The position numbers and the translations under genes are program-made. The notes under the pieces were generated by a model, which saw only the letters and a program-made list of their open reading frames with translations, was not told the DNA's origin and searched no databases. A DNA stretch of 39,324 nt from Myxococcota bacterium (lineage in GTDB: Bacteria > Myxococcota > Myxococcia > Myxococcales > Myxococcaceae). The stretch is taken from positions 107,180 through 146,503 of the forward strand of contig JBFMAB010000122.1 in NCBI GenBank assembly GCA_040755835.1, in the 5' to 3' direction. Shown here in pieces: positions 8,081-29,003 of the stretch (position 1 is the first letter of the stretch; the number at the start of each line of letters is the position of its first letter).

Positions 8081-8146
8081 GCGCCGGCTTTTCCGGGTTT
8101 TGTGATCCGGGAAGACGGCAAGGGACCCTTTGGAGGTACATCTGAA

Positions 8147-8999: not shown

Positions 9000-9013
9000 A
9001 CGAGGAGACGACG

Positions 9014-9499: not shown

Positions 9500-9527
9500 G
9501 CGGCAACGAAAGCGAGTTCACAAGACC

Positions 9528-10112: not shown

Positions 10113-10138
10113 CTCGCGCTTCGCTGACGCCAGACGAG

Positions 10139-10168
10139 CCCCGGGCGCCCCACGGCCCCGGGGTTTTT
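10139..10168 (+). terminator. Rho-independent terminator candidate after the TolQ-TolR-TolR module
   Basis: GC stem CCCCGGG (10139-45) / CCCGGGG (10157-63) with an 11-nt loop, followed by TTTTT (10164-68). It lies 27 nt after the stop at 10112. Confidence 0.45.
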
Positions 10169-10221
10169 CGTCTTCGCGAAGGGCGCGGTAGAACCCGGCC
10201 ACACCCACATCGGAGCAGCCC

Positions 10222-12410: not shown

Positions 12411-13634
12411 TCAGCGCACGAGCTCGCGCGCCTGCGCCACCTTCTCCCCGTTGGGGAAGCGCTTCAGGTAGTCGGCGGCGACCTTCTTCGCCTCGGCCTT
12501 CCGCTTGCTGCGCACCAGCACGTCCAGCCAGCGGCCCATGGCCTCGGGCGCGGTGTCGGCGTTGGGCGCCTCCTTCACGGCCTGGGAGAACCACCTCACC
12601 GCCTGCTGGTCGTCGTGCTCGACGTTGGCCGCGAGGTCGCCCAGGCGAATGGCGGCGGCCACGGCGGCGTCGCTGCCGGGGAAGCGCTCGCGCACCTGCA
12701 GCCACGCCTCGCGGGCGTACGCGGGGTGGCGCGCCTTCTTCGCGGTGTCGCCGAGCAGCAGCACGTCGCTCTTCGGGAGCGAGCGGGTGAGCCAGCTGAA
12801 GCCGGCCTCGTCCGCGGCTTGGATGGCGCCGACCGCGTCGCCGGTGTCGGCGAGGTAACGCCACGACGGGCCCTGGGCCTTCGGCCGCTCCGGCGCGGCC
12901 TGCGGCGTGCGCTTCTCGGACAGCACGCGCACCACCGGCGGCGACGTCTGCGGCGCGCGCTCGGCCTCGGCCACCGCGGGCGGCGTCTCGAGGTACAGCG
13001 AGGCGCGCGGCGGGTTGGAGAAGGCCTCCAGCTTCTGCCGCGAGGTGACGCGCTGCTTCGACAGCCCCGGGCCGTCGACCTCGACGATGCCCTCCTCCAT
13101 CTCCACCTCGATGCCGCCCGCCTCCGGGTTCCACCGCAGCTCGAACTTCGTGCCCACCACGGCGACGCGGTACGGGCCGGCGTGGAAGTTCCAGCGCGTC
13201 TGCTTGTCGCGGTGCACCACCGCCACGTGCGCGGCGCCCTTCTCGAGCAGCACATCGGCGCCGTGGGCCGTCACCTTCGTCACGCGGATCTGCGAGTCCT
13301 TGCGGAGCAGCACCTCGGTGCCGTCGCTGAAGTCGATGGCTTCGTCGCCGGCCTGCGCGAGGACAAACTCGCCAGACGAGCCGGGCTGGCCGCGCACGGT
13401 GAGGCTGAGCGGCGTCTCGGGCCACACCACGAAGGCCACCACCGCCGCGGCGGCGGCCGCCGACAGCACGGGCACCACGAAGCGCCACATCGACGGCGCC
13501 GGCGTGTCGACGCCGTGCAGCTTCTCGGCGAAGCGCGCGCGCGCCCTCGCCAGCACGGCCTGGTCACTCGCCGGACCGGCGTTCTGCCCCTGCCGCTCCA
13601 GCGCCTCGGTGTACTTGTCGCTGAAATCCTTCAT
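12411..13634 (-). CDS. FecR-domain anti-sigma factor with a C-terminal TPR-like region
   Basis: Start MKDFSDKYTEAL overlaps the sigma stop (TCATGA at 13631-13636). One TM (FVVPVLSAAAAAAVVAFVVW). FecR-like beta region (VGTKFELRWNPEAGGIEVEMEEGIVEV). Helical C-terminus. The longer upstream ORF start was rejected. Confidence 0.7.
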   Translation of the reverse strand: MKDFSDKYTEALERQGQNAGPASDQAVLARARARFAEKLHGVDTPAPSMWRFVVPVLSAAAAAAVVAFVVWPETPLSLTVRGQPGSSGEFVLAQAGDEAIDFSDGTEVLLRKDSQIRVTKVTAHGADVLLEKGAAHVAVVHRDKQTRWNFHAGPYRVAVVGTKFELRWNPEAGGIEVEMEEGIVEVDGPGLSKQRVTSRQKLEAFSNPPRASLYLETPPAVAEAERAPQTSPPVVRVLSEKRTPQAAPERPKAQGPSWRYLADTGDAVGAIQAADEAGFSWLTRSLPKSDVLLLGDTAKKARHPAYAREAWLQVRERFPGSDAAVAAAIRLGDLAANVEHDDQQAVRWFSQAVKEAPNADTAPEAMGRWLDVLVRSKRKAEAKKVAADYLKRFPNGEKVAQARELVR

Positions 13635-14317
13635 GACCCGAAGGACCTCCCTTCCGCGAGCCAGGCGCGAATCTCCGGTTCCCGCTGCACCAGCTCGTTG
13701 AACTCGGCTTCCGCCTTCCAGATGCGGCGCTTCGCCGTCGACAGCGACACGCCTACCGTCTCGGCCACCTCGGTCAGCTCCAGGCCTTCGAAGTAGCGGA
13801 GCGTGAAGCACAGTCTCTCGTCGACGCCCAGGCGGTCCAGCACCGCCTTCACGCGCCTCAGCACGAGGCGTTCCTGCACCGCGTCGGACGTGGTGAGCGC
13901 CGGCAGGCCGCTCGTTTCGAGCGCCTCGTCGTTGCCCTCGTCGCCGCCGCCCAGCGGCAGCCACTTCCGCCAGCGGCGCTTCTTGAGCATCGAGCGCGCG
14001 GTGAAGACGGTGAGGCTGCGCAGCCAGGGCTTCAGCTTGTCGGCCTCGCGCACGCGGCCCACGCCCTCGAGCGCGCGGGAGAAGACTTCCTGCACCATGT
14101 CTTCGAGCTCGCCGTCCGCGCCCATCACCCGGCGCAGCACCGACAGCACGTAGGGCGCGAAGCGATCGTAGAAGGCGAGCCACGCCCCGGGCCGGCGCGC
14201 GCGCAAGGCCTCGAGCAGCCGCTCGTCGCTCCCCGCAAAGGCCACCGACGGCGTCGGTCTGGTCATCGCAGCATCCACGCAGGCCCCCAGTCTCCCGGGG
14301 AATCTCCCGCGGTTCAT
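13631..14317 (-). CDS. ECF (sigma-70 family, group IV) RNA polymerase sigma factor
   Basis: Region 2 (DMVQEVFSRAL...) and a region-4 helix-turn-helix (FEGLELTEVAETVGVSLSTAKRRIWKAE). The alternative start is MTRPT at 14266. Confidence 0.8.
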   Translation of the reverse strand: MNRGRFPGRLGACVDAAMTRPTPSVAFAGSDERLLEALRARRPGAWLAFYDRFAPYVLSVLRRVMGADGELEDMVQEVFSRALEGVGRVREADKLKPWLRSLTVFTARSMLKKRRWRKWLPLGGGDEGNDEALETSGLPALTTSDAVQERLVLRRVKAVLDRLGVDERLCFTLRYFEGLELTEVAETVGVSLSTAKRRIWKAEAEFNELVQREPEIRAWLAEGRSFGS

Positions 14318-14428
14318 CCCGTGAAAAATCAGGCAGTTATCAAGCGTGACCGGCTGATTTCGTGGATCAGCGGGCCCGCCCCTGGGGTGTGTCCGGCCGC
14401 GCAGGTGTCCTGAGGGGGTCGCCGCGGT

Positions 14429-15763
14429 TCATCCGAGGCGGAAGCGGCGGATGACGGCCTGGAGCTCTTCGGACAGGGTGGTGAGTTCCTGGGCGGACGC
14501 GGTCATCTGGCCGACGGCCTGGGATTGCTCCTCGATGACGCGCTTGATGGCCTCGGTGGCCAGGGCGTTCTCGCGGGCGACGCCGGAGATGTCGGTGATG
14601 GCCTGCACCATGGCCTGGCTGGATTGCTGCTGGGCCTGCGCGGCGGTGGAGATGTGGGCCACCTTGTCGGCGCCGTCCCTGGCGGAGTCGGAGATGGCGG
14701 CCATCGAGCGCACGATGAGCGAGAGGTCCTCGCGGCCCTGCGCGAGCTCTTCGATGCCCTCCTTCATCGCGGTGACGACGTGCACCGACTGGCCGGAGAT
14801 GTCGCGGGCGAGGCGGCTGATGGCCTCGGCGGACTTGCCGGCGGACTCGGCCAGCTTGCGCACCTCGTCGGCGACGACGGCGAAGCCGCGGCCGTACTCA
14901 CCGGCGCGCGCGGCCTCGATGGTGGCGTTGAGCGCGAGGAGGTTCGTCTGCTGCGCGACCTGGGTGATGGCGTCGACGATCTTGGAGATCTCCTGCGTCT
15001 TCTCGCCGAACTTGAAGACCTCCTGGCTGGCGGTCTCGATGCGGCTGAACACCTTGCGCACCTTCTCGCCGGCGAGTCGCGCGGCGGTGCTGCCTTCTTC
15101 AGCGGACTGCGAGGTGGCGGCAGCGGCCTTGGTCGACTCCTCGGCGGAGCGGGCGGTGCGCTGCAGCACCTCGGCCATCTCGGTGATGGTGCCCTTCGCG
15201 CGCGCCACCAGCGAGGACTGCGCCTCGGCGCCCGCGGCGATGCGCTTCATCGACTCGCCGATCTCGGAGGCCTGCGCGTTGACGCCGGTGGCCGATGCCT
15301 CGAGGCCGGTGGCCGCGTCGGCGACGGCTTCCGCGGTGTGTTGGATGGAGGACACCAGCTCGCGCAGGTTCTCCTGCATGTCGTCGATGGCGACGGCGAG
15401 CTCGTCGATGTCGTCGCGCACGCTGGACGCGTCGAGCTGCACGCGCCGCGAGAGGTCGCCGCGCGAAATCTCAAGCGCCGTCTGCGACAGCTGCTGCACG
15501 CGCGCGACGCGCAACAGCAGCCACGGCAGGGTCACCGCGAGGATGAGCGTCACCAGGAAGGCCGCGATGATTTTCAGCGCCCAGTCCCACGCGTTGCCCA
15601 CGTAGAAGACGCCCACCAGGGCGGTGGCCAGTACCACGTAGCCGGCGAGGATCTTCAAATGCAGCGACACCTGCGCCCGCCGCACGTCCCCCTGCCGCAC
15701 GACGCGCTCCACCGGCTGCCGCCTCGACAGCCCACCAGCCGCCACGTCGGAGGGTCTGCGCAC
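14429..15763 (-). CDS. Methyl-accepting chemotaxis protein (two TMs, HAMP, MCP signalling domain)
   Basis: Two N-terminal TM helices, HAMP, and the highly conserved MCP signalling core ([34 protein letters not shown]). Confidence 0.85.
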
Positions 15764-15975
15764 GAGGGGGAGATTTAGCCCCAGACGCCCCCGCCCTCCA
15801 GTTTGCTCCGGCTGTTGCCAGGCCGGGCTTCAGGAGCGCAAGGCGCCGCGCGCGCGGGCGAAGCTGCACGTCGCGTCCGAGGCAGCCTGAGTCCACAGGC
15901 CTGTCGCACCTGCACCCACCGCCCGAGAAGAACGCGACGCGCCGGGGCGGGCGTGTAGACTCGCAGCGGTTTCGC

Positions 15976-18009
15976 GTGGCCACGCCCAGCTTCATCGCCC
16001 CGACCAGTCCGCTCGATCGGCGGCGGCTCGGGAAGTATGAGGTGCTGTGCCGTCTGTCGACGGGCGGCATGAGCGAGATCTACCTCGCGCACCAGACGGG
16101 CCTGGCGGGCTTCAACAAGTTGGTGGTGCTGAAGACCATTCTCCCCGACATCGGCGGGGAAGAAGACTTCGTGCGCATGTTCCTCGACGAGGCCCGCACG
16201 ACGGCGGCCTTCAACCACCCGAACATCGCGCAGGTGTACGAGCTGGACACGGACGACGGCCAGCTCTTCATGGCGATGGAGTTCGTCCAGGGTTGCACGC
16301 TGGTGGAGATGGCGCGGGCCTGCCGCGCGGCGCGCGAGGCGATCCCCATCGGCTTCACGCTGGCGGCGGTGCGTGACACCGCGCTGGCGCTCCACTACGC
16401 GCACACCTTCACCGACGCGCGCGGCCGCAAGCAGATCGTCATCCACCGCGACGTCGCCGAGAAGAACATCATGGTGACGTACGAGGGCGTCACCAAGCTG
16501 CTGGACTTCGGCATCGCCAAGGCGCTGGGGCGCTCGGGCCGCACCGGCGTGGGCATGGTGAAGGGGACGAGCGGCTACATGTCCCCCGAGCAGATCCGCG
16601 GCGAGCCGCTCGACGGGCGCAGCGACATCTTCGCGTTGGGGGTGGTGGCCCACGAGTGCCTCACCGGCCTGCGGCTCTTCCACGGCAAGTCGCCCGAGGA
16701 AGGGATGATGGCGGCGCTCAAGGAGAACGTCGTCCCGCCGTCGAGGTGGAACCCGCAGGTGCCGCCGGCGGTGGACGCGGTCGTGCTCAAGGCGCTGCAG
16801 CGCGATCGCGAAGCGCGCTTCGCCACGGCCCTGGAGTTCGCGCGCGAAATCGACCGCGTCGGCCACGGGCTCATCTGGCACCCGGAGCAGAGCGGCGAGC
16901 TGGTGCTGAAGTACTTCAACGACCGCCGTGCCGAGACGCGCCGGTTGCTCGAGTCGTCCGTCAACCAGGAGGTGACCGGCGAGATCCGGGTGAAGTCCAT
17001 CATCCAGAAGGTGCGCGCCACCGCGTCGACGCCGGGCACGGACGCTCCGAAACCCGAGCAGGCCACGCCCGCGCCCACCCCCGTCATCAGCGCGGCGCTG
17101 CGGCGCCCGACGCAGAACATGCCGCCGGCGACGCAGGGCACGGCGCCGAACATCAACCCTGTCACGCTGCGGCAGCCCGACCCGACCACCTCGCCGGCGC
17201 GCCCGAAGGTGCTGCGCGCCGACCCGCCGCCGGCCCCCGCGCCGCGCGCCATCGACCTGACGCCGCGGGCGAGCGAGTTCGACGACGACGAGGCCGACGC
17301 GAAGACGATTCCCGCGGCGGCGCTGCCCGACGAGGTCCGCGAGCTCCGCAAGCGCATGCTGGAGGCCGCTCAGGCGAAGAAGGCCTCGCCCACCGGCACC
17401 ACCACGCCCGTCGCTGCGTCGGTGCGAACGAGCCGTCCGGACACCAGCTCCATCACCGAGCCCACGCCCGTGCAGCCGCCGGCGCCGGTGGTGGCCTCCG
17501 CCGCCCGCGCCAACCTCGCCACGGAGCCGGAGCGCCGGCCGGTGCTGCCGGTGACGGACGCGAGCCCGGCGCTCAAGGTGCCACCGCGCGACACCGACGG
17601 CGACACGCTCAGCATCACCAACCGCGGGTCGCCGCCCACCGACTGGGACGACGACGACGTGGGCGCGCGCACCACCATCGCCCGCCCCGACGAGGTGCTG
17701 GGGCAGATCAAGAAGCAGCAGTCCGACGACGACCTCCGCGCGACGCAGGAGCGCGAGCCCTCGTCGGTGTACCTGCGCGAGGTGCGCTGGCGGAGCCGCG
17801 CGTTGATGGTGGTGCTGGTGGCGATGGCGCTGCTCGCCGTCGTGGGCATCCTGGTGCTGCTGGAGGTCATCCCCCTGGGCGCCGCCGACGAGCCGCAGGC
17901 GGAAGCAATACCCGCCGTCGTCCAACCCACGGCAGACACCGCGGCCGAGGCGCCGCCCGAGCCGCTGCCCGACGTCCCCGCGCCCACACCCGCGCCGAAC
18001 AAGAGGTAG
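15976..18009 (+). CDS. Hanks-type Ser/Thr protein kinase with a Pro-rich linker and a C-terminal TM segment
   Basis: Kinase subdomains: VLK (Lys), HRD catalytic loop (HRDVAEKN), DFG, SPE. Long Pro/Ala-rich region. TM (ALMVVLVAMALLAVVGILVLL). Confidence 0.85.
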   Translation: MATPSFIAPTSPLDRRRLGKYEVLCRLSTGGMSEIYLAHQTGLAGFNKLVVLKTILPDIGGEEDFVRMFLDEARTTAAFNHPNIAQVYELDTDDGQLFMAMEFVQGCTLVEMARACRAAREAIPIGFTLAAVRDTALALHYAHTFTDARGRKQIVIHRDVAEKNIMVTYEGVTKLLDFGIAKALGRSGRTGVGMVKGTSGYMSPEQIRGEPLDGRSDIFALGVVAHECLTGLRLFHGKSPEEGMMAALKENVVPPSRWNPQVPPAVDAVVLKALQRDREARFATALEFAREIDRVGHGLIWHPEQSGELVLKYFNDRRAETRRLLESSVNQEVTGEIRVKSIIQKVRATASTPGTDAPKPEQATPAPTPVISAALRRPTQNMPPATQGTAPNINPVTLRQPDPTTSPARPKVLRADPPPAPAPRAIDLTPRASEFDDDEADAKTIPAAALPDEVRELRKRMLEAAQAKKASPTGTTTPVAASVRTSRPDTSSITEPTPVQPPAPVVASAARANLATEPERRPVLPVTDASPALKVPPRDTDGDTLSITNRGSPPTDWDDDDVGARTTIARPDEVLGQIKKQQSDDDLRATQEREPSSVYLREVRWRSRALMVVLVAMALLAVVGILVLLEVIPLGAADEPQAEAIPAVVQPTADTAAEAPPEPLPDVPAPTPAPNKR

Positions 18010-18337: not shown

Positions 18338-18899
18338 ATGCGGACGCGCGTCTTCGGGCTCTCGACTGGCCTCGCGCTGTCCGTGCTGTCCCTCGCCGCG
18401 TGCGGGGCCGCCGCGCCGGCGTGCGCCGGCGACGCGTGTGCGCGCGAGGCCGCCGGCTGCGCGCACACGGCGGGCACCTGCGCGATGAATTCCTCCGGCT
18501 CGTCGTGCACGCAGGCGTGCGAGGGCCCGGCGGCCTGCGCGCTGGACCTCGGCGGCGCCGCGTCGGCGACGTGTATCTGCACGGCGAGCTGCACCGGCAC
18601 CGCGGGCGACGACGTCACGCTCCTGCAACAGCAGCTCGACGTGCTCGGTGAACGCCGGCGCGCGCCTCACTGCCACTTGCACCAGCTCGTCGAAGGGCAC
18701 CTTCCAGGGCGGGTCCGGCACCGGCGTGCGCTGCAGCAACAGCGCGGAGTGCGCACTCGCGTGCACCGGCATGAGCTGCGCCATCCTCTACAACGACAGC
18801 GCGAGTTTCACGTGCACGGGTGCGGCCTGCGGCATCACCTGCCGCGCGGGCCACGCCACGACGTGTCCCGACGGCCGGCTGGTGTGTGGCACGTCGTGA
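18338..18899 (+). CDS. Cys-rich secreted lipoprotein, apparently interrupted by a 1-nt frameshift near 18608-18616
   Basis: Signal peptide and lipobox (LSVLSLAAC). The Cys-rich frame 0 runs to about 18613 (..CTASCTGTAGDD). A similarly Cys/Ser/Thr-rich frame +1 continues to the stop at 18899 (..TCTGAACGITCRAGHATTCPDGRLVCGTS). Frame 0 beyond 18613 and frame +1 before 18600 both look noncoding (Arg-rich). Confidence 0.35.
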
Positions 18900-18976
18900 T
18901 GACGCGCGCCACCGCGTCGGTCTTCCTCCGCCTGGCCGTCGTCCTGCCCGAAGGTGTGCAAGGTTTACCCCGGTCC

Positions 18977-19768
18977 ATGGCCCGTCCCCGCAAACCGCCC
19001 AAGTGGCTGGAGGCCGCCCGGCAACGCCCTCCCGGCGGAGGAAACGACTGGCTCGCGCGGGCCCTGTCGCGCGCCGGCGCGCTGCCCTTCGGCGACGCGG
19101 AGGCCGCGGTGCGGGCGGGCCGCGTCACCGTCGACGGGCGCGTCGTCACGCAGCCGCTCGCGCCGGTGACGGCCACCGCTCGCGTCGCCGTGGACGGGAA
19201 GCCCGTGGACGTGAAGCCGACCACGCGCGTGGTGATGTTCCACAAGCCGGCGGGGCTGGTGACGGCGGGCAGGGACGCCGAGGGGCGGGGCACCGTCTTC
19301 GAGGCGCTCCGCCGCGCGCTGCCGCCCGCCCTGCAGGGCTACGGCTGGCACGCGGTGGGCCGGCTCGACCGCGACACCACCGGGCTGTTGCTGTTCACCA
19401 ACGACGAGCGCTTCGTCGCGCACGCCACGCGGCCCGAGACGCACCTTCCGAAGCGCTACGTGGCGCGCGTCGGCGCGAAGGTGACGGAGGCGAAGCTGGC
19501 GCAGCTGCGCGCTGGCGTGACGCTGGAGCCCGGCGTCATCTCGAAGCCGGCGGGCGCGCAGGCGCGCGGCGACGACGTGGTGGAGCTGACGCTGACAGAG
19601 GGCCGCTACCACCAGGTGAAGCGCATGCTGAACGCGGTGGGGCTGCCGACGCTGGCGCTGCACCGCGAGGCGGTGGGCGCGCTGGTGCTGGACGTGGCGG
19701 TGGGCGCGGTGCGGGAGCTGTCGGCCGACGAGGTGCGCGAGGCCCTCGGCTACGCGCCGCGTGCCTAA
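18977..19768 (+). CDS. Pseudouridine synthase, RsuA/RluB family (S4 domain plus catalytic domain)
   Basis: S4-like N-terminus (WLARALSRAGALPFGDAEAAVRAGRVTVDG), catalytic-Asp motif GRLDRDTTGLLLFTND, and YHQVKRMLNAVG. The internal ATG at 18977 was chosen. Confidence 0.8.
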   Translation: MARPRKPPKWLEAARQRPPGGGNDWLARALSRAGALPFGDAEAAVRAGRVTVDGRVVTQPLAPVTATARVAVDGKPVDVKPTTRVVMFHKPAGLVTAGRDAEGRGTVFEALRRALPPALQGYGWHAVGRLDRDTTGLLLFTNDERFVAHATRPETHLPKRYVARVGAKVTEAKLAQLRAGVTLEPGVISKPAGAQARGDDVVELTLTEGRYHQVKRMLNAVGLPTLALHREAVGALVLDVAVGAVRELSADEVREALGYAPRA

Positions 19769-20196
19769 CTCAGAGACGCGCCCTGCAGCAGCACCGCGCC
19801 GACGGCCGCGATGACGTACGGCACCATGCCCGCGGCGGCCGCGTAGTCCCTGGCGAGGCGCTGACCGAGGAAGAGCGAGAGGAGCGAGACGCCCGCGACG
19901 CACGCGCCGAGGAACGCCACCGCGCTGTGTCGCGTGAAGACGTTGGCGAGGCACCCGGCGGCCGACAGCACGCCGGCCAGCACCTCGAGCACCGTGATGG
20001 TGAAGAGCATCAAGCGCGGGAAGCGGCCCAGCGGCGTCTTCGCGAGGTAGCCGCCGATGTATTCGCGGTTCCCCTTCCAATCGAGCACCTTGTCGAGGCC
20101 CGACTGCAGGAAGAGGACGCTGAAGAAGGCGCTCGCCAGCACCTGCGCTGCCCAGAGGCTCACGGAGTGCGTCATGGGCGAGAGCTTGTAGCTCAA
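19765..20196 (-). CDS. DoxX-family integral membrane protein
   Basis: 143 aa with four TM helices and a DoxX-like pattern. Convergent 4-nt overlap with the pseudouridine synthase stop. Confidence 0.65.
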   Translation of the reverse strand: MSYKLSPMTHSVSLWAAQVLASAFFSVLFLQSGLDKVLDWKGNREYIGGYLAKTPLGRFPRLMLFTITVLEVLAGVLSAAGCLANVFTRHSAVAFLGACVAGVSLLSLFLGQRLARDYAAAAGMVPYVIAAVGAVLLQGASLS

Positions 20197-20203: not shown

Positions 20204-20692
20204 TCAGCCGCCCTTCAGCAGCGTCAGCAGCGTCCGGGGCAGGAGGAAGCGCAAGCTGGCCTGGCCCAGCGTGATGACGGCGCCGTCGTGCAGCGGCACG
20301 CGCGCGCCCTTGGCCACCGCGTCCCCGTCGAGCCACGTGCCATTCTTCGACTGCGCGTCGCACAGCATCCACGTCTTCTGGCGCTCGTCGAACTGCAGCC
20401 AGGCGTGGAAGCGGCTCACCGAGGTGTCGTCGATGATGACGTCGTTGGACTCCACGCGGCCCAGCGTGATGCCCATGGGGAACGCGTTGTTGGTGCGCTG
20501 GGCCTTCTCGACGAAGAAGAGCTGCGGGTCGCTGTCCTCGGGCGGCTTGCCCACCACCAGGGCGCCCGTCTTCTCCCAGTCCTCGGCGGCCGCCGCGCCC
20601 TTGCGCTCGAAGAGGAGCACCGGCGTGGTGAGGCGGAGCTCGACCGCTCGGGGGTCCTTGCGCCACTGCTGGGAGAGGTCGCTGAGCAGCAT
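20204..20692 (-). CDS. FHA-domain protein
   Basis: FHA signature: GR...NDVIIDDTSVSRFHAWLQF...DAQSKNGTWLDGDAV (the GR...S.HA...NGT core). Confidence 0.7.
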   Translation of the reverse strand: MLLSDLSQQWRKDPRAVELRLTTPVLLFERKGAAAAEDWEKTGALVVGKPPEDSDPQLFFVEKAQRTNNAFPMGITLGRVESNDVIIDDTSVSRFHAWLQFDERQKTWMLCDAQSKNGTWLDGDAVAKGARVPLHDGAVITLGQASLRFLLPRTLLTLLKGG

Positions 20693-20728
20693 GCGTTCGC
20701 GGACGGCGAGGCTAGCAGCACCGCCAAT

Positions 20729-22720
20729 TCACCGCCGCCGTGCACCGGCGAGCAGGTGGTCCGCGTTCTCCGCGTACACCTTCCGCAGCACCTCGGGCGG
20801 CAGACCCAGGCCGGAGATGCGCCACCGGCCCTGGATGGGCGTCGGGTGGGCGAAGTCGCGGTCGCGCGTCTCGAAGAAGCGCCAGGTGGCGGTGAAGAAG
20901 TGGGACACGTCGGCGGGCGTGGGCGGCGTGGCGCCGGTGCTGCCCAGCATCAGCTGCGCGTCGGTGGGGCCCACGCCGAGGTCGGTGCCGAAGAGGATGC
21001 GGTCCTGGTAGCGGACGAAGAGGTCGCGGAGCGCCTCGGGCGGCTGTCGGCCCAGCTCCGGCACGCGCGCCGCGGTGTCGACGTACAGGTTGGGCAGCGC
21101 GTCCAGCATCGCGGCGACGGCCCACGGGTCCTCCGGGTCGTTCCCGAAGTGCACGCCGATGAAGGTGGTGCGCGGGTGCCGCGCGACGCGGCGGCCGTAG
21201 GCGGCGAAGAGCGCGTCCCACGACGGGACGTCGGCGCCCGCGTAGCGCCACCCCGGGTGCGCGGAGAGCTCGTCGATGCGCTCATTGGCCTCGGTCGCCG
21301 GCTGCCAGAAGGCCTTCGGGTCGCCAGTGTGAATCGAGATGGGCAGCCCCAGCTCGCCGGCCTTCTCGAAGAGCGGGTCGAGGCGCGGGTCGTCCACCCC
21401 CAGCAGCGTGCCGTCCGGCGCGCGCGCGCCGAGTCCGAGGGACTTGAAGAACTTGAGCCCCTTCGCGCCGAGCCGCTGCGCCGCCTCCGTCTGCGCCACC
21501 AGCTCGTCGATGGAGAGTTCGCCCCTGGCGAAGGCGCCCACCGGCGGGTTGGCGAACACGACGACGCGGCCGTTCGTGCTGCGGGCGGCCTCCACCGAGG
21601 CCTCGAGGCCCTCGCCCGGCCAGCCGCCCGACAGGTTGATGGCGACGTCGATGCCCCACGCGTCCATCAGCGCGACGAGGCGAGGCACGTCGGCGGGCGA
21701 GACGTGCACGTGCGCGTCCACCTTGCGGTAGCGCGGGGCGCCATCGGCGGTGGCCTTGTCGGGAGGCAGGTAGATGCGCTCGCCCTGGTCCAGCACCACC
21801 CACTCGCGCGACGCATCGTCGGCGAGGAAGAGCGCCTTCGCGGCGTCGATGTCGAGGCCGGGCATCTTCGCGAGGCCCTTCGCCCAGGGCTGGAAGAAGT
21901 TGTCGTAGTGCGTCGGGAGGACGCGGCGCGGCTTCGCTTCCGCGAGCAGGCCGTCCACCTTGGCCTTCGTCTGCGCTTCACCGGTGACGCCGACGATGAG
22001 GGTGGCGGCGGGCGGCGCGTTCAGCTCGCCGGGCGCGAAGGTGCTGGTGGGGTGGAACCACAGCGAGGTGCCGTTGGCCTCGAGGCGGTAGAAGAGCGTC
22101 TCGTCGAGGGCGTACTCGAAGAAGCGCAGCGGGCCCGCGGTGGGCGAGACGACGCCGCCCATGGGGTGCGAGATGCCGGCGATGTCGGCATGGCGGGTGC
22201 CGCGCACGTCGATGGTGAAGGTACCCACCGTGAAGTGGTCGCCGGGCTTCACGAGGCGGGTGCGCCCGGCGGGGACGCCGCGGCTCAGCGCGAGGTTGAC
22301 GGTGGACTGCGAGCCGATGACGAGCGCACCGGTGCGCAGGGCAATGGCCGGCACGTCGAGCGCATGGTCATGGTGCGTGTGGTTGACGAGAATGGCGTCG
22401 GCCTTCGGGCACTCCTTCGCGCCGAGGGCTTCGTCCGGCGACAAGGGAGCGAGCAGCGCGAGCGGCGGCGGGCGCGTCGGCGTCGGGTCGAGCAGCAGCG
22501 TGGTGGTGCCGTCGCTCACCTCGTAGCCGGAGACGCCGAGGTAGCGGACGCTGAGGCCGTCGGTTCGCGGCGTGCGGAGCGCGGCAGGTCCACGGTGTGC
22601 GGCGGGGACGGTCCACGGCACGTGGCGCACGGCGACGAGGAAGACGGCGACGGCCAGCGCGGGGAGAGCGAGCAGCGCGGCGAGCGCGACGAGGAGGCGG
22701 CGGCGGAGGCGGGGTGTCAC
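20729..22720 (-). CDS. Membrane-anchored fusion of an MBL-fold metallo-hydrolase domain and an amidohydrolase (TIM-barrel) domain
   Basis: GTG start (VTPRLRRRLLVALAALLALPALAVAVFLV is the signal/anchor). MBL motif HTHHDH, then an amidohydrolase metal site (VDAHVHV) and a conserved C-terminal HxGxxD-like region. The upstream 748 codons of the 1411-aa ORF were rejected. Confidence 0.65.
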   Translation of the reverse strand: MTPRLRRRLLVALAALLALPALAVAVFLVAVRHVPWTVPAAHRGPAALRTPRTDGLSVRYLGVSGYEVSDGTTTLLLDPTPTRPPPLALLAPLSPDEALGAKECPKADAILVNHTHHDHALDVPAIALRTGALVIGSQSTVNLALSRGVPAGRTRLVKPGDHFTVGTFTIDVRGTRHADIAGISHPMGGVVSPTAGPLRFFEYALDETLFYRLEANGTSLWFHPTSTFAPGELNAPPAATLIVGVTGEAQTKAKVDGLLAEAKPRRVLPTHYDNFFQPWAKGLAKMPGLDIDAAKALFLADDASREWVVLDQGERIYLPPDKATADGAPRYRKVDAHVHVSPADVPRLVALMDAWGIDVAINLSGGWPGEGLEASVEAARSTNGRVVVFANPPVGAFARGELSIDELVAQTEAAQRLGAKGLKFFKSLGLGARAPDGTLLGVDDPRLDPLFEKAGELGLPISIHTGDPKAFWQPATEANERIDELSAHPGWRYAGADVPSWDALFAAYGRRVARHPRTTFIGVHFGNDPEDPWAVAAMLDALPNLYVDTAARVPELGRQPPEALRDLFVRYQDRILFGTDLGVGPTDAQLMLGSTGATPPTPADVSHFFTATWRFFETRDRDFAHPTPIQGRWRISGLGLPPEVLRKVYAENADHLLAGARRR

Positions 22721-22900
22721 GCGCGGCCTTGTGTCGGAGTGACCCGCCCGGCGCCAGCCAGCGCGCGCAGAACCGTCGGAGGCGTCGGGAATCGCGCGGG
22801 CGTGGGCGCGTGGGCTTGCGTGCGCGCGGTGACTCGGGCCAGATGCGCGTCCGTCCGCGGGCGGCCGGCGCCTGCGCGTCTTGTTTCCCGGGGAGTCGCC

Positions 22901-24058
22901 ATGACCACCAACGCCTTCCGCTCCGTGCTGCTCGCGGCCTTCGCGGCCGTCGCGTTCGCCGCGTGTTTCTCGGCCGTGCCCGAGGGCGCGACCTGTACCA
23001 CCGACGCCGACTGCGGCAGCGGCAAGGTGTGCGCCAACGGCGCGTGCACGACGGTGTCCGACGACGGCGGCGCGGGTGGCGGGACGGGTGGCGGCACGGC
23101 CGGTGGCGCGGGTGGCGGTGACGACGCGGGCCAGGGCGGCGGCGCGGGTGGTGGAGACGACGCGGGCCAGGGCGGCGGCGCGGGTGGTGGCACGGCGCCG
23201 GACGGGGGCATGCCGGACGCGGGCGTGTGCGGCTGCATGAGCGTGCTGGGCTGCCAGCCGGGCGACTCGCCGCTGGCGTGCGGGACGGGTGGCGCGGGCA
23301 CGATGTGCGTGAACTGTGGCATCGGCGAGCAGTGCGTCAACGGCGCGTGCGTGATGGCGGCCTGCGGGCCGATGACGTGCAACGGCTGCTGCACGAACAA
23401 CTTCTGCGTGACGCCGACGCAGCAGAACCGATTGGCGTGCGGGTCGAATGGCGCGGCGTGCATGGGCTGCGGCATGGGCCAGCAGTGCACGAACGGCGCG
23501 TGCGTGACGCCGCCGCCCTGCGACGCGACGACGTGCCCGACGGGCTGCTGTCAGAACGGCCAGTGCCAGCCGGGCAACACCAACCGCTCGTGCGGTACGG
23601 GTGGCGCGGCGTGCATGCCGTGCGGCCTGGGGAACCAGTGCGTGGCGGGCGCGTGCTTGACGCCGGACGGCGGCGCGGTGACGCCGGTGGCGGCGGGCTC
23701 GCCGTGCACGTCGTCGATGGGGTGTCAGCCGCCGCAGGGCGCGTTCTGCATCCGGGAGTCCGCGTTCGGGCAGCCGTCTGGCTACACGGGCGGCTACTGC
23801 TCCGCGCAGTGCGGGACGATGCAGCCGTGCGCGTCGGGCGTGTGCGTGACGGAGCCCCTCTTCGGGGTGAGCGGCAGCACCTGCCGGGCGAGCTGCACGG
23901 GGCCGGGCCTGGGGCAGTCGACGTGCCGGACGGGCTACGTGTGCGTGGGCATCGCGGGCGCCACGACGGGCTACTGCCGGCCGAACTGCAACAATGGCGG
24001 CCTGGCGGCGTGCCCGACGGGGCAGATGTGTGACGCGATGACGGGCTACTGCCAGTGA
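22901..24058 (+). CDS. Secreted Cys-rich tandem-repeat lipoprotein
   Basis: GGGAG RBS, signal peptide and lipobox (AVAFAAC), a Gly-rich spacer, then about three 44-aa repeats of TCxxGCCxNxxCxxxxxNRxxCGxxGAACMxCGxGxQCxxGACV, and a Cys-rich C-terminal domain. Confidence 0.7.
   Translation: MTTNAFRSVLLAAFAAVAFAACFSAVPEGATCTTDADCGSGKVCANGACTTVSDDGGAGGGTGGGTAGGAGGGDDAGQGGGAGGGDDAGQGGGAGGGTAPDGGMPDAGVCGCMSVLGCQPGDSPLACGTGGAGTMCVNCGIGEQCVNGACVMAACGPMTCNGCCTNNFCVTPTQQNRLACGSNGAACMGCGMGQQCTNGACVTPPPCDATTCPTGCCQNGQCQPGNTNRSCGTGGAACMPCGLGNQCVAGACLTPDGGAVTPVAAGSPCTSSMGCQPPQGAFCIRESAFGQPSGYTGGYCSAQCGTMQPCASGVCVTEPLFGVSGSTCRASCTGPGLGQSTCRTGYVCVGIAGATTGYCRPNCNNGGLAACPTGQMCDAMTGYCQ
23099..23198 (+). repeat. 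Direct 42-bp DNA repeat encoding the Gly-rich spacer (GGDDAGQGGGAGGG, two copies)
   Basis: gacgacgcgggccagggcggcggcgcgggtggtgg is repeated in tandem. Confidence 0.6.
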
Positions 24059-24096
24059 GGGGTGGCGGCGCGTGCCCGACGCGCCCGCCTCAGGCT

Positions 24097-24795
24097 CTAC
24101 GCCGACGCGTCCGGCGACGCAGCCGCCGGCTGCTTGCTCTCCATCACCTTCTTCGACACGAACACGTACACCCCGAACGCCACGAGCAGCGCGGGAATCA
24201 TCCACACGAAGTTCTTCCGCACCATGTCCGTGCCGCTGTGCACGAGCTCCGCGTACGTCATCGTCGCGGTGCTCTTCCCAATCACGTACCCGATGACGGT
24301 CAGCACCGTCACCCACAGGCCGGCGCCGAGCCCCGTCCACAACGTGAAGCTCTTGAGCGGCATCCTCGCGATGCCCGCGGGGATGGAGATGAGCTGGCGG
24401 ATCGCTGGCAGCAGCCGGCACACGAACGTCGCGCCCGCGCCATAGCGCCGGAACAGCTCCTCGGCCCGGCGCAGCTTGGGCGGCGGCAGCAGGAAGTACT
24501 TCCCGTACTTCTCCAGGAACGGTGTGCCGAGCCAGCTGAACAGGAAGTAGTTCACGTACGCGCCCAGCAGCGAGCCCGCCGTGCCCGCGAGGACGGCCAC
24601 CGTCGCGTCCATCACCGGGTTGCCCAGCGTCAGGCCCCCGCGCGCCGCGAGGAACCCCGCGGGGATCATCACCACCTCGCTCGGGAACGGGATGAAGGAG
24701 CTCTCGATGGTCATGAACAGCACCACCAGCAAAAACCCCCACGTCGGCGCGTAGGCGGCGAGGGTCTCGATGTGGGCGATCAACATCTCGGTCAC
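24097..24795 (-). CDS. DedA-family (SNARE-associated / TVP38) membrane protein
   Basis: DedA signature (FIPFPSEVVMIPAGFLAA...G, RLLPAIRQLISIPAG) and multiple TMs. Confidence 0.8.
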   Translation of the reverse strand: MTEMLIAHIETLAAYAPTWGFLLVVLFMTIESSFIPFPSEVVMIPAGFLAARGGLTLGNPVMDATVAVLAGTAGSLLGAYVNYFLFSWLGTPFLEKYGKYFLLPPPKLRRAEELFRRYGAGATFVCRLLPAIRQLISIPAGIARMPLKSFTLWTGLGAGLWVTVLTVIGYVIGKSTATMTYAELVHSGTDMVRKNFVWMIPALLVAFGVYVFVSKKVMESKQPAAASPDASA

Positions 24796-24860
24796 GGGTC
24801 TGGCCTCCGGTCGCGGGGCGGATTACCACCATTCCCTCGGCATGCGAAACGAGGGCTGTC

Positions 24861-25520
24861 ATGGGTGAGGCGATCGACCGGGTGCGCGCCGCCGTGCGCC
24901 GGCTCAAGGTGTTTCCGCTGCCGTCCGTCGTCCTGCTCCCCGGCACCGTCCAGCCCCTCCACATCTTCGAGCAGCGCTACCGTGACATGGTGAAGGCCGC
25001 CCTCGAGTCCGACGGCGTCTTCGCCATGGCCCAGGTCCTCCCCGGCCAGGAAAACCGCCTCGCCGGCTCGCCCGAGCTCGAGCCCATGCTCTGCGCCGGC
25101 GTCATCGGCATGCACGAGCAGCTCGAGGACGGCCGCTACAACCTCGTCCTCGTCGGCGTCGCCCGCGTCCGTCTGGTGCGCGAGCTGCCGCAGGTCGCCA
25201 GCTACCGCGAGGTCGAGGCCGAGCTCGTCGAGGATCCGCCCGTCGACTCCGAGGAAGAGGTTCCTCTCCGCCAGGCCGTGCTCGAGCTCATCGCCCGCGT
25301 CCCCGACGAGGTGGGCGACAAGGTGGCCACCGTCACCAGCCGCCTGCACGGCGGGCAGCTCGCCGACGTCGTCGCCGGCACCATTCTCCAGGAGCCCGCC
25401 CAGCGCTTCGAGGTCCTCCTCCAGACCGACGTCCGCGCCCGCCTCCGCGAGGTCACCGACGAGGTCATGCAGGTCGTCGCCCGCCTGAAGCCGAAGAAGC
25501 AGAAAGGGCTGCTCCATTGA
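24861..25520 (+). CDS. Lon N-terminal (LON substrate-binding) domain protein
   Basis: The N-terminus FPLPSVVLLPGTVQPLHIFEQRYRDMV matches the Lon N-domain start (PLFPLxxxVLFPGxxLPLxIFExRY). About 220 aa, with no ATPase or protease domain. Confidence 0.7.
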   Translation: MGEAIDRVRAAVRRLKVFPLPSVVLLPGTVQPLHIFEQRYRDMVKAALESDGVFAMAQVLPGQENRLAGSPELEPMLCAGVIGMHEQLEDGRYNLVLVGVARVRLVRELPQVASYREVEAELVEDPPVDSEEEVPLRQAVLELIARVPDEVGDKVATVTSRLHGGQLADVVAGTILQEPAQRFEVLLQTDVRARLREVTDEVMQVVARLKPKKQKGLLH

Positions 25521-25570
25521 CCTCGGGCGCCAGCCTTGAATTCCCCGGTTTTTCGGGCGTTGATCGGTCC

Positions 25571-26317
25571 GTGACGCGCCACTTCCACCAGTTGGGCCTC
25601 CGGGCCGCCCTGTGGGCCTTCGTCGCCCTGGCCCTGCCCGCGTGGGGCGCCGACGGCGACTGGGAAACCGTCCTCGAAGGTCCCATCACCATCAAGAACC
25701 GCGCGGTGCCCAACAGCGCCGTGAAGGAGATTTGGGCCGAGGGCGACATGGCCGCGCCCGTGCAGGACATCCAGGACACGCTGATGAAGCCGGAGCTGTT
25801 CCGCAGCTTCATGCCGTACCTGAAGGACTCGCGGGAGATCAGCAAGAAGCTCGAAGACGGCAGCGTGTACGTCTACACGCTCATCGACCTCCCGGTGGTC
25901 GGCAAGCGCGACTACATCGTGCGCGTGTGGCTGCGCGAAGGCGTCAAGCCGGACGGCACCGGCACCTTCCGCAACGAGTGGAAGGCCGAGCCCGACTACC
26001 TCCCGCTGCGCTCCAACATCACTCGCGTGCGCCTCAACACCGGGGGCTGGACCATCACCCCCGTCGGTGACGGCTCGAAGAGCCACGTCGTGTACCAGTT
26101 CGCCGTCGACCCCGGCGGCTGGGTCCCGTCCTTCGCCGTCAACATGGGCAACGAGAAGGGCGTCGGCGACACCTTCCGCGCCGTGGAGAAGGAAGCGCAG
26201 AGGCGCCGCGACGAGCGCCTCGCGAAGCAAGCCAGGGCCGCGAAGGAAGCGAAGGCGGCCGAGGCGAAGGCCGAAACCCCCAGCGCCACGCCGGCCCCCG
26301 CGGTCGCCGCGCCCTGA
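25571..26317 (+). CDS. Secreted START/SRPBCC (Bet v1-like) domain protein with a Lys/Ala/Glu-rich tail
   Basis: Signal peptide ([20 protein letters not shown]) and a START-like core ([21 protein letters not shown]...GGWTITP...[16 protein letters not shown]). A GTG start was chosen; the TTG at 25517 overlaps the upstream gene and is the alternative. Confidence 0.55.
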
Positions 26318-26469
26318 CTGGTGGACGTGACGCCGGCGCGCCCGGCGGCTCCTTCAGCTCCGCGTCCCCGTTCCGCATCGCCTCACCGGCAGGTCGGTCC
26401 TTGAACCCGCCGGGGGGGCGCGCTATGGGGCGAGCCGCTTCAGTCACCCTTACGCGGAACGGCCACACC

Positions 26470-27636
26470 ATGATCAAGGACTACCTCTTCACCTCCGAGT
26501 CGGTCACCGAGGGGCACCCGGACAAGATCTGTGACCAGATCTCCGACGGTGTCGTCGACGCGCTGATCGCGAAGGATCCCCGCGCCCGCATCGCGGTGGA
26601 GACGCTGGTGAAGACGGGCCTCGCCATCGTGGCCGGCGAGGTCACCACCAACGCGTGGATCGACATCCCCACCATCGTCCGCAAGACCATCACCCACATC
26701 GGCTACACCGACTCGTCGATGGGCTTCGACGGCCACACCTGTGGCGTCATGGTCGCCATCGAGGGCCAGTCGCAGGACATCGCCCGCGGCGTCGACGAGA
26801 AGGGCGGCAAGGAGCAGGGCGCGGGCGACCAGGGCATGATGTTCGGCTACGCGTGCAACGAGACGCCGGAGCTGATGCCCGCGCCCATCCAGTACGCGCA
26901 CACGCTGACCCGCAAGCTGTCCGAGGTGCGCCGCAAGAAGCACTCCTGGCTGCGCCCCGACGGCAAGTCGCAGGTCACCGTCGAATACAAGGACGGCAAG
27001 CCCGTGCGCATCGACGCGGTGGTCGTGTCCACCCAGCACGCCGAGGACGTCAGCAACAAGAAGATCAAGGACGTCGTGATGGAGGAGGTCATCAAGGCCT
27101 CGCTGCCCGCGAAGCTGATGGACAAGAAGACCAAGTTCTTCATCAACCCGACCGGGCGCTTCGTCGTCGGCGGCCCGATGGGCGACTCGGGCCTCACGGG
27201 CCGGAAGATCATCGTCGACACCTACGGCGGCATGGGTCGTCACGGCGGCGGCGCCTTCTCGGGCAAGGACCCGTCGAAGGTCGACCGCTCGGCGGCGTAC
27301 ATGGGCCGCTACATCGCGAAGAACGTGGTGGCCGCGGGCCTCGCGAGCCGCTGCGAGCTGCAGGTGTCCTACGCCATCGGCGTGGCCGAGCCGGTCAGCG
27401 TGATGGTGGAGACGTTCGGCACCGCCACGGTCGCCGAGGACCGCATCGCCCGCGCGGTCCGCGAGGTCTTCGGCCTGAAGCCCCGGCAGATCATCGAGCA
27501 CCTCGACCTGCTCAAGCCCATCTACCAGCGCACCGCCGCGTACGGCCACTTCGGCCGGCCGGAGTTCAGCTGGGAGAAGACGGACAAGAAGGACGCGCTC
27601 CGTGACGCCGTCGGCGCCAAGGTGAAGGCGGCCTGA
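26470..27636 (+). CDS. metK: S-adenosylmethionine synthetase
   Basis: MetK motifs: [51 protein letters not shown]. 388 aa. Confidence 0.95.
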
Positions 27637-27653: not shown

Positions 27654-29003
27654 ATGACGAAGGGCCGGCAGGGCGCATCGCACGCAGGCTCGCTGGCGGC
27701 GCTGGCCGCCTCGCTGGACACGGCCAAGCGCGCGCTGCCGGCGTCGGCGGCCGCGTCGAAGTCGAAGGACGCGCTGCGCGAGGCGCTCCGCGAGAAGCCG
27801 CCGGCCCGGGTCGAGGCGGAGGCGCCGTCTGTTTCCTCGCACGACGCGAAGTCCGCCGTGGCGTCGGGGGCGCGTGAGGCGAAGCCGACCACTGGGGCGC
27901 GGGCGCGGGACGCGAAGGCGAGCGCTTCGTCGAGTCGGGGGCCGTCGACGGCTGCACGCGGCGCGAAACCGGGCCCCGCTTCCAGCCGGGGGACTTCCGG
28001 GCCCGGGCACGACGCGGAGGGGAGCGCAACTGCGAGTCGGGGACCGTCGGCCCCTGCGCGCGACGCGAAGCCGAGCCCCGCGCCCAGCCGGCGAACGTCC
28101 GCGCCGGCGCGTGACGGGAAGCCCGGCGCCGCCTCCAGCCGACATGCCCGCGAGCCTGCGCGGGAAGCCAGGCCCAGCGTCCCTGCCGGCCGAGCGGCGA
28201 CGGCGCCGCCGCGCGACGAGAGCCGTCCTTCCAGCCGAGGTGCTTCCCCGCCCGCGCGCGAGGAGAAGCGCAGCGCCGCCGTCAGCCGCAGCGCGCCGGC
28301 GCCGGTGCGTGACGCGAAGGCGAGCGCCAGCGCGGGCCGCGTCGAGCCGAGGTCCGCCGCGTCCGCGCGAGCCGGTTCGGCGCCGCCCGTCCCGGCGCTC
28401 TCGTCTGCGGTTCCGCGCGCCGCAGCGCTGGCGTCGATGGCGCGCGCGCCGAGCCCTGTGCCCGCGCGCACGCCCGTCTCCCGACCGGTGGGCTCGGCGG
28501 TGTCGCCCCCGGTGGGGAACTCGCGCCGCCGCTACCCGCGGGCGGAGCTCACGGTGAAGGCGCGGCTCTCGCTCGCCGACGACCCGTCGCGCGTCTTCGA
28601 GGCGTCGCTGCCGACGGTGAACATCTCCGTGGGCGGGCTCTTCCTCGAGTCCAGCTTCTTCCTGAAGCTGGGCACCAGGCTGCTGGTGCACCTCTCGCTC
28701 CCGCCGAAGGGCCGCGAGGTGACGGTGAAGGGTGAAGTCGTGCGCGTCGAGTCGTCGGACGCCGGCCCGTCGGGCTTCGCCCTGCGCTTCACCGAGTACC
28801 TCGACGGCAGCGAGGTGGCGCTCGCCACCCACTTCCTCTCGCCGGTGCTGCGCGAGTTCATCAGCAGCTACGCGAAGCAGCACCGCTTCGACGCGAGCGC
28901 CGAGTACCTGGCGCACACCGCGGACGTGCTGGCCGCCTGGGAATTGAAGAAGGCCGAGCTCGGCGGCGACGTCTGGCAGATGACCTGGCGCGACGCGCGA
29001 TGA
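27654..29003 (+). CDS. PilZ-domain protein with a long N-terminal Ser/Ala/Arg/Pro low-complexity repeat region
   Basis: C-terminal PilZ motifs RRRYPRAEL (RxxxR) and NISVGGLFLES (D/NxSxGG). About 290 aa of degenerate ARDAKP/SRGPS repeats. Starts 18 nt after metK. Confidence 0.7.
   Translation: MTKGRQGASHAGSLAALAASLDTAKRALPASAAASKSKDALREALREKPPARVEAEAPSVSSHDAKSAVASGAREAKPTTGARARDAKASASSSRGPSTAARGAKPGPASSRGTSGPGHDAEGSATASRGPSAPARDAKPSPAPSRRTSAPARDGKPGAASSRHAREPAREARPSVPAGRAATAPPRDESRPSSRGASPPAREEKRSAAVSRSAPAPVRDAKASASAGRVEPRSAASARAGSAPPVPALSSAVPRAAALASMARAPSPVPARTPVSRPVGSAVSPPVGNSRRRYPRAELTVKARLSLADDPSRVFEASLPTVNISVGGLFLESSFFLKLGTRLLVHLSLPPKGREVTVKGEVVRVESSDAGPSGFALRFTEYLDGSEVALATHFLSPVLREFISSYAKQHRFDASAEYLAHTADVLAAWELKKAELGGDVWQMTWRDAR

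Follow-up and report, generated by a model that had tools for sequence, protein, structure and literature searches.

The window analysed here, a 39,324-nt stretch of Myxococcota contig JBFMAB010000122.1, carries on its minus strand an open reading frame (ORF) in which a metallo-beta-lactamase (MBL)-fold hydrolase and an amidohydrolase are joined in one polypeptide. A preliminary description, made from the letters of the window, had proposed a single 663-aa ORF encoding a membrane-anchored two-step enzyme. Translation of 20729..22720 (minus strand) is free of stops and frameshifts, and the single ORF therefore stands. Its parts are listed below in window coordinates.

20729..22720, minus strand: fused hydrolase ORF, 663 aa, GTG start, comprising a signal-anchor, an MBL-fold domain, a short linker and an Amidohydro_2 domain
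22628..22696, minus strand: sole hydrophobic segment, residues 9-31 (Kyte-Doolittle scan), preceded by RLRRR
21758..22558, minus strand: MBL-fold hydrolase domain, residues 55-321 (Pfam, invariant columns, AlphaFold2 and Foldseek)
22364..22381, minus strand: HxHxDH motif (HTHHDH), residues 114-119 (motif scan, family alignment)
21734..21757, minus strand: fusion junction and linker K322-P329 (KATADGAP), the place at which relatives have the MBL tail, a stop, a spacer and a lipoprotein signal peptide
20741..21733, minus strand: Amidohydro_2 TIM-barrel domain, residues 330-660, with ligands H337, H339, H464, H524 and D580
21701..21721, minus strand: VDAHVHV, residues 334-340, the HxH on the first barrel strand (motif scan, alignment, model)

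The window was scanned against Pfam with curated thresholds, and motifs were located in the translation. The MBL half matched Lactamase_B_3 (31.7 bits, cut-off 24) and Lactamase_B_2 (30.9 bits, cut-off 27) over residues 58-272, and the second half matched Amidohydro_2 (75.4 bits, cut-off 26.4) over residues 374-656. All three matches exceed the curated cut-offs, so that the domain assignment is upheld by hidden Markov model search.

Searches with the full protein show how rare the combination is. A phmmer search of 1.84 billion representatives returned 4577 matches, and the best 150 each cover one half only; a fused relative at 40% identity or above would have outranked all of them. A word-indexed search of 5.8 billion clusters returned 52 homologues, among which the exact copy alone contained both Pfam domains. 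Every one of the 51 non-identical homologues covers a single half, either as MBL proteins of 330-375 aa or as amidohydrolase proteins of ~365 aa, and these include proteins 86-96% identical to the window. Further fusions of the two halves were found neither among the best 150 phmmer matches nor in the word-indexed search nor in a scan of JGI metagenomes. The fusion had earlier been called uncommon, and with none of the best 150 matches spanning both halves this description is accurate. Three proteins whose alignments seemed to cross the junction (P0130, P0072 and P0099) are single-domain proteins with N- or C-terminal extensions, and the longer phmmer matches carry partner domains other than MBL. 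A literature search for this architecture, or for comparable fusions by loss of a signal peptide, found nothing relevant.

The event that produced the ORF can be read from its closest split relatives. In contig L001 (Logan DRR438471, ~86% aa identity) the MBL gene (8001-9128) and the amidohydrolase gene (9164-10267), which encode P0003 and P0004, are co-oriented neighbours separated by a 35-nt spacer. The L001 MBL protein ends in ...LPPDAPAAEPQPPVN followed by its stop codon, and the amidohydrolase begins with MNARATLALCLALASGC|TCRDRTASSTPRDAGPRYRKVDAHVHV, a lipoprotein signal peptide with a lipobox Cys; at the junction the window reads ...LPPDKATADGAPRYRKVDAHVHV. Alignment of the window with L001 DNA contains one clean 146-nt gap in the window. 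Missing there are the end of the MBL gene with its stop codon, the whole 35-nt spacer, and the codons for the lipoprotein signal peptide and its tether. The downstream gene of L001 lies in frame +2 relative to the upstream gene ((9164-8001) mod 3 = 2), and since 146 mod 3 is also 2, the deletion joins the two reading frames.

A tandem pair is also present in L006, a Myxococcales metagenome-assembled genome (MAG) whose halves are 74% and 79.5% identical to those of the window, with a spacer of ~27 nt. The closest split relative is L003, at ~91-92% nucleotide identity; there the MBL and amidohydrolase genes are separated by a DUF998 gene (1447-2127, minus) on the opposite strand, and the window has a net 999 nt less. 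Blocks of blastn alignment between the window and L003 stop at 21758 and resume at 21737. At the breakpoints of the relatives only GCCGA-type microhomology was seen, and no long flanking repeat. The fusion is derived and recent, and arose from a deletion in frame. The preliminary description had allowed that the halves might prove to be separate genes: this is the case in the relatives, but in the window sequence they form one uninterrupted ORF. The intergenic spot between the two genes has been rearranged repeatedly in close relatives, occurring in tandem, with an insertion, with an inversion (L125) and as the fusion.

The fused sequence was found in three assemblies: JGI contig 3300036768 (L004), Logan contig SRR29635775 (L005) and NCBI MAG protein MEW6435422.1, on a 146-kb contig. 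The L004 and L005 DNA is 100% identical to the window. An assembly or sequencing artefact, in which two real genes lost a 146-nt segment during assembly, might be suspected for metagenome-assembled sequence at 72% GC, the more so as the fused copies do not differ from one another and may go back to a single data set. The same junction was, however, obtained by different pipelines (JGI, Logan and NCBI MAG), and repeats of k-mer length, which might have led an assembler to collapse the region, are absent at the breakpoints of the relatives. The codons at the junction are unique and not a simple join of the parental sequences; the reading frame is preserved exactly, and the domain boundaries are intact. 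An artefact is, on these grounds, extremely unlikely.

We therefore favour, with good confidence, a genuine and very recent in-frame fusion, by deletion, of two neighbouring genes for envelope metallohydrolases. The relatives show the ancestral state. The first gene encodes an MBL hydrolase of the UlaG / UPF0173 / NAPE-PLD-like branch, predicted to be held by a single-pass anchor with the N-terminus inside and the C-terminus outside (N-in/C-out). The second, 27-35 nt downstream, encodes the precursor of a lipoprotein, with lipobox and Cys, whose enzyme part is an Amidohydro_2 TIM-barrel hydrolase. Relative to an L001-type arrangement, a 146-nt deletion removed the last MBL codons and the stop, the spacer and ~30 signal-peptide and tether codons, and cancelled the +2 offset. 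The amidohydrolase domain would now be exported as a passenger of the MBL signal-anchor, and would be tethered to the inner membrane through the MBL helix and a flexible linker of ~12 residues rather than by a lipid anchor of its own. Both active sites are intact to judge from the conserved residues, and each domain most likely keeps its original hydrolytic activity in the periplasm.

Several points weigh against this interpretation. The fused form is seen in one population only, with all copies 100% identical, so that selection after the fusion is not measurable, and the three assemblies may share the same or sibling read sets. No close characterised enzyme exists for comparison (equivalogs under cut-off, no significant PDB sequence match for the amidohydrolase half), and the AlphaFold2 models cover each half separately. 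The topology is a prediction, and the positive-inside bias on which it draws is modest, with four Arg preceding the helix and two to four basic residues following it.

The same confinement to one population with 100% identical copies would fit a recent neutral or mildly harmful lesion, in which the amidohydrolase lost its lipid anchor together with its usual destination, probably the outer membrane, and may be mislocalised, misfolded or in the course of being lost. Relatives at 91-94% identity are still split, an in-frame outcome had a one-in-three chance, and the region has been rearranged repeatedly (DUF998 insertion, inversion, gain or loss of the FHA gene). In relatives the mature amidohydrolase carries Thr, Ser or Arg at +2, unlike the inner-membrane signal of M. 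xanthus. Neither half, however, has acquired stops, frameshifts or ligand substitutions. The KATADGAP linker differs from each of the parental ends, which suggests that time has passed since the fusion event, and the population is abundant enough to have assembled a 146-kb contig. Comparison with L001 and L003 gives each half a ratio of nonsynonymous to synonymous substitution (dN/dS) of 0.15-0.22, which together with the conserved ligands and the confident models speaks for function in both halves, but which cannot separate the periods before and after fusion. A lesion of this kind is considered unlikely, and a genuine fusion of two functional hydrolases remains the preferred account.

The extent of the fused ORF at its 5' end was established from several lines of evidence. 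The GTG at 22720 is the first start codon past the ATG of the divergent gene (~22901), and in a four-way DNA alignment this GTG is invariant, being kept in three relatives. The same alignment has a 10-nt indel in L001 within the 180 nt upstream of the GTG, which are therefore non-coding. Third-position GC climbs at ~22756, in accord with a start at 22720, and gene callers applied to a 91-94% identical relative likewise begin the protein at MTPRLRRR. The real start of the fused ORF is the GTG at 22720. A start further upstream was considered and rejected: the frame is open to 24964, but contains no ATG, GTG or TTG upstream of 22720 as far as the start of the divergent gene. The resulting ORF of 1411 aa (20729..24964) is an open-frame artefact of the 72% GC of the window, a composition (~72%) that gives very long spurious ORFs on both strands.

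The two halves were modelled separately in AlphaFold2, because an alignment of the whole fusion with half-length homologues (A4) misaligned several MBL sequences. The model of the MBL half contains an N-terminal helix over residues 3-30 of the fused protein; together with the single hydrophobic segment at residues 9-31, this agrees with the membrane anchor that had been proposed. The predicted local distance difference test score (pLDDT) falls below 50 at both flanks of the junction, which suggests a flexible linker of ~12 residues. The fused protein contains a single Cys, at residue 104.

A basic RLRRR lies on the N-terminal side of the single helix. Distant MBL members have N-terminal domains of 180-370 aa, with no signal peptide, before the helix, which argues for the N-in/C-out orientation, and both catalytic domains are accordingly predicted from sequence features to be periplasmic. 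An amidohydrolase carried by the MBL anchor thus makes sense in terms of topology. The predicted cytoplasmic part would be limited to ~8 residues (MTPRLRRR, residues 1-8), including Thr2. Export through the twin-arginine (Tat) pathway was considered for RLRRRLL; a 23-residue hydrophobic stretch without AxA favours an uncleaved anchor. In M. xanthus, Lys at +2 is typical of inner-membrane lipoproteins (PMC3222651). In the amidohydrolase of split relatives the +2 residue is Thr, Ser or Arg and not Lys, so that the ancestral enzyme was probably anchored in the outer membrane.

The preliminary description had assigned the first half to the MBL fold on the HTHHDH motif, and this is confirmed by the Pfam matches, by the ligands and by the alpha-beta/beta-alpha sandwich of the model. 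The ligands H114, H116, D118, H119, H177, D206 and H271 show no variation across 10 family members, H223 is 90% conserved in the family alignment, and the domain ends in LPPD throughout the family. The AlphaFold2 model of this half has a pLDDT of 89.4. Foldseek placed it with 3bv6, 2wyl (UlaG), 3x2z, 6hrg and 4qn9, all at probability 1.0; these structural neighbours comprise an uncharacterised protein (3bv6), UlaG lactonase, TM1162, Igni18 and NAPE-PLD, at TM-scores of ~0.5-0.58. A profile search of PDB sequences recovered 7e3v (3.6e-10) and UlaG (2.8e-5). The UlaG and UPF0173 equivalogs, however, score far under their NCBIfam cut-offs (PRK11709, 25.2 versus 306; PRK00685, 35 versus 144).

The half thus shares with the UlaG / UPF0173 (YtkL, TM1162, Igni18) / NAPE-PLD branch (COG2220) the alpha-beta/beta-alpha fold, and the HxHxDH motif with the downstream His, Asp and His ligands, but is only 16-20% identical to it. 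Unlike that branch, the window family has an N-terminal membrane anchor with RHxP just after it, a predicted periplasmic location, and a family-specific C-terminal block, ...HYDNFFQP...LPPD. The MBL half is a member of the metallo-beta-lactamase superfamily and of no characterised family. Among distant members (P0047, P0048, P0051, P0052 and P0059; L086 1503-3581), the N-terminal domains of 180-370 aa precede the same transmembrane helix, and that of P0048 is DUF6882. The RHxP just past the helix is invariant and common to these distant members. Neighbours at two distant-MBL loci include DAGK_cat, MMPL and LplA.

The second half had been described as a TIM-barrel amidohydrolase on the basis of VDAHVHV and a C-terminal Asp. 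The Amidohydro_2 match bears this out, as do D580 and the His ligands; further motifs are IHTGD at residue 463, GVHFGN at 522 and FGTDLG at 577 (full-length numbering equals the numbering of the half plus 320). H337, H464, H524 and D580 are invariant in 25 amidohydrolase members, and H339 is replaced by Asn in a few. The AlphaFold2 model (pLDDT 93.9) has the (beta/alpha)8 barrel fold, and the ligands sit on the strands as expected, with the HxH on strand 1, His after strands 5 and 6, and Asp on strand 8.

Against the PDB, phmmer gave no match to this half at E <= 0.01, and the best E-value of the profile was 0.26. Structural neighbours are 13-23% identical, and the closest folds are uncharacterised. 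From the PDB sequence searches and the structural identities, orthology to ACMSD, IDCase, LigI, LigW or LigY is not supported. The barrel and the HxH/His/His/Asp ligands are held in common with Amidohydro_2 (PF04909, COG2159; BB4693 3irs, CAC3332 3cjp, ACMSD, IDCase, LigW, LigI). Those members that have been characterised are cytoplasmic enzymes of aromatic or pyrimidine catabolism (decarboxylases, hydratases and lactonases), whereas the window family is exported, in most Myxococcota as a lipoprotein, and has relatives joined to carbohydrate-active modules. The amidohydrolase half is a superfamily member, of no characterised family.

A profile scan of species-representative genomes recovered at least 576 relatives of the amidohydrolase, of which the best 80 were all Myxococcota MAGs. 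A strict lipobox pattern was present in 29 of 45 homologues, and nearly all the others have a hydrophobic N-terminal segment. In the split relatives the protein has a lipobox and Cys, for example ...LASGC|TCR; in the window the lipoprotein signal peptide and lipobox are deleted. Relatives elsewhere (P0094, P0173, P0080, P0133, P0100, P0154, P0175 and P0184) are fused to a GDSL/SGNH esterase, CBM9, DUF2961, GH4, DUF819 or GT1, and the CBM9, SGNH and GH partners give hints of carbohydrate or ester substrates. With relatives of the amidohydrolase fused elsewhere to CBM9, GDSL/SGNH, GH4, DUF2961 and GT1, and with the UlaG lactonase and the NAPE-PLD phosphodiesterase among the structural neighbours of the MBL half, we would guess that ester, lactone, phosphodiester or amide linkages are hydrolysed in carbohydrates or lipids of the envelope or outside the cell. 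Among the genes conserved next to the amidohydrolase in 100 loci, none names a substrate. In 46 of ~100 other Myxococcota loci (among L007-L120), a large protein is encoded on the same strand at a median of 172 nt upstream of the amidohydrolase; by eye it has a PilZ-like N-terminus, a low-complexity region, a transmembrane segment and a PEGA-like C-terminus. The PilZ-domain gene that the window contains (27702..29003) is not adjacent to the amidohydrolase.

Conservation of the gene pair was analysed by tblastn on the loci of amidohydrolase relatives. The only ones with an MBL orthologue beside the amidohydrolase are L001/L002, L003, L006 and the copies of the window. In the 79 other Myxococcota loci, none of them above 70% identity, no gene for an MBL, FHA or DoxX protein lies within 6 kb of the amidohydrolase, and in metagenome loci none for an MBL protein lies within 4-6 kb of it. 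In L125 (GCA_040752975.1) the two orthologues (MBL 74%, amidohydrolase 77%) are on opposite strands, with the MBL gene 1.6 kb upstream, and in a relative at ~80% identity no MBL gene was called upstream of the amidohydrolase. From the other side, a metagenome MBL gene at 72% identity has 538 nt downstream of it without an amidohydrolase, and MBL relatives in other phyla have no amidohydrolase nearby. The two genes are at most 2 kb apart in five clade members. In the loci compared, the MBL-amidohydrolase neighbourhood is confined to a narrow Myxococcota clade, and its arrangements are changeable.

So-called 'Rosetta-stone' proteins are reportedly, in fusion analyses of the Marcotte/Enright type, fusions of neighbouring operon genes. 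The components of the window protein are likewise separate, adjacent and co-oriented in close relatives, and were joined by loss of a stop and spacer. Unlike the usual case, the deletion also took the export and lipidation signal of the downstream partner, so that the tether was swapped, and the event is limited to one population. As the pair is not co-conserved past the narrow clade, the functional link that a fusion is usually taken to imply has weak support in this case.

The remaining claims of the preliminary description concerned regulation, and involve three further genes.

20204..20692, minus strand: FHA-domain protein of 162 aa (Pfam FHA, E 5e-17), 36 nt downstream of the fused ORF
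19765..20196, minus strand: DoxX-like small membrane protein (Pfam DoxX), 7 nt downstream of the FHA gene
15976..18009, plus strand: Ser/Thr protein kinase with a C-terminal transmembrane segment (Pfam Pkinase), on the opposite strand to the fused ORF

The FHA gene does lie 36 nt downstream on the same strand, as had been reported. The stated distance of 2.7 kb to the kinase is also correct when taken from the 3' end of the kinase gene to the hydrolase stop, but the kinase is on the plus strand. No terminator-like site was found between the hydrolase, FHA and DoxX genes, and co-transcription of the FHA gene with the fusion gene in the window is plausible. An FHA gene is also found downstream in L005, L006 and L125; it is absent at that position in L001. 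In the ~80% relative it lies 885 nt from the amidohydrolase, behind an antisense ORF, and is followed by DoxX, RluB, kinase and MCP (methyl-accepting chemotaxis protein) genes. The DoxX gene adjoins the FHA gene in that relative, and a He_PIG gene intervenes in L125. FHA orthologues at 64% and ~50% identity have unrelated contexts, and the gene belongs to a widespread family of small Myxococcota proteins. A synteny analysis had been suggested, and by this measure the linkage fails: it is gone in L001, displaced in the ~80% relative and present in none of the 79 other amidohydrolase loci. With the catalytic domains predicted to be periplasmic, a cytoplasmic FHA protein could reach residues 1-8 only. 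The hint of phospho-dependent regulation is thus not sustained, the domains being predicted outside the cytoplasm with a tail of ~8 residues and an FHA linkage that is not conserved, and a role of the FHA gene as functional partner of the hydrolase is unsupported.

These observations bear on the proposal of a dedicated bifunctional membrane enzyme that carries out two hydrolytic steps on one substrate under phospho-regulation by the FHA protein or kinase. The tandem genes with spacers of 27-35 nt in L001 and L006, and the distance of at most 2 kb in five clade members, fit the logic of a functional link. The FHA gene starts 36 nt beyond the fused ORF without an intervening terminator-like site, and occupies a downstream position in L006 and L125 as well; the kinase-RluB-DoxX-FHA order repeats in a relative, and the 8-residue cytoplasmic tail holds a Thr-Pro. 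The 79 genome loci and the metagenome loci, however, have the amidohydrolase without an MBL gene in the surrounding 4-6 kb, no amidohydrolase is found near MBL relatives elsewhere, the two genes of L125 are on opposite strands 1.6 kb apart, and the ~80% relative has no upstream MBL gene called. The FHA gene is absent at its position in L001 and has unrelated contexts at 64% and ~50% identity, and the predicted periplasmic catalytic domains would be beyond the reach of a cytoplasmic FHA protein or kinase. Kinase and FHA genes are scattered through these loci, so that proximity alone is weak evidence. A dedicated, phospho-regulated enzyme is accordingly regarded as very unlikely; as the halves are separate genes in all relatives, neighbour each other in a small clade only and lie on opposite strands in L125, the claim of a dedicated two-step enzyme is not borne out, and the case for an obligatory two-step pathway is weak.

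Little probability is likewise given to an adaptive fusion, in which a single periplasmic enzyme tethered to the inner membrane would have two metal centres acting in sequence on one envelope or extracellular substrate, with FHA input through the Thr2 tail as a possibility. Opening of a lactone ring or cleavage of a phosphodiester, followed by deacylation, would be an example of such a sequence. If true, an adaptive fusion would be a natural experiment revealing a functional link between two uncharacterised families of Myxococcota envelope hydrolases.

The fusion is a new arrangement of known folds, and not a conserved bifunctional system. As a recent in-frame fusion by deletion, it provides a clean, datable example of the birth of a bacterial multidomain protein, in which a 146-nt deletion moves an exported enzyme onto the anchor of its neighbour while relatives at 86-94% identity still show the unfused state. 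It also draws notice to two widespread, uncharacterised families of exported Myxococcota metallohydrolases, the Amidohydro_2 lipoproteins and the signal-anchored MBL proteins. A caution follows for annotation: adjacency in one genome is not enough to assign regulation, by FHA protein or kinase, or pathway coupling.

The other genes of the surrounding region are as follows.

12411..13670, minus strand: FecR-like anti-sigma factor
13631..14323, minus strand: extracytoplasmic function (ECF) sigma factor
14429..15796, minus strand: MCP with a HAMP domain
within 18527..19768, plus strand: RluB-type pseudouridine synthase
22901..24058, plus strand: Cys-rich predicted lipoprotein with Gly/Asp-rich tandem repeats (GGAGGGDDAGQGGGAGGG...), divergent from the fusion gene
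24097..24795, minus strand: DedA/VTT-domain membrane protein
24861..25520, plus strand: stand-alone Lon N-terminal substrate-binding-domain protein
25517..26317, plus strand: weak START-like protein

Signalling genes cluster beside the locus (12411..18009 and 18527..19768), and the order FHA-DoxX-RluB-kinase-MCP recurs in the ~80% relative. The DedA/VTT, Lon N-terminal and START-like genes lie between the Cys-rich gene and metK (26401..27636). The Cys-rich lipoprotein gene is kept in L001 (6808-7965, 385 aa), and its Pfam matches are sub-threshold only (DUF7107, Dickkopf_N). The 180-nt intergenic region between this gene and the fusion gene (22721..22900) is conserved about as well as the flanking coding sequence in the window, L001 and L003, despite the 10-nt indel, and a plus-strand terminator-like hairpin (22856..22876) is located within it, just upstream of the start of the Cys-rich gene.

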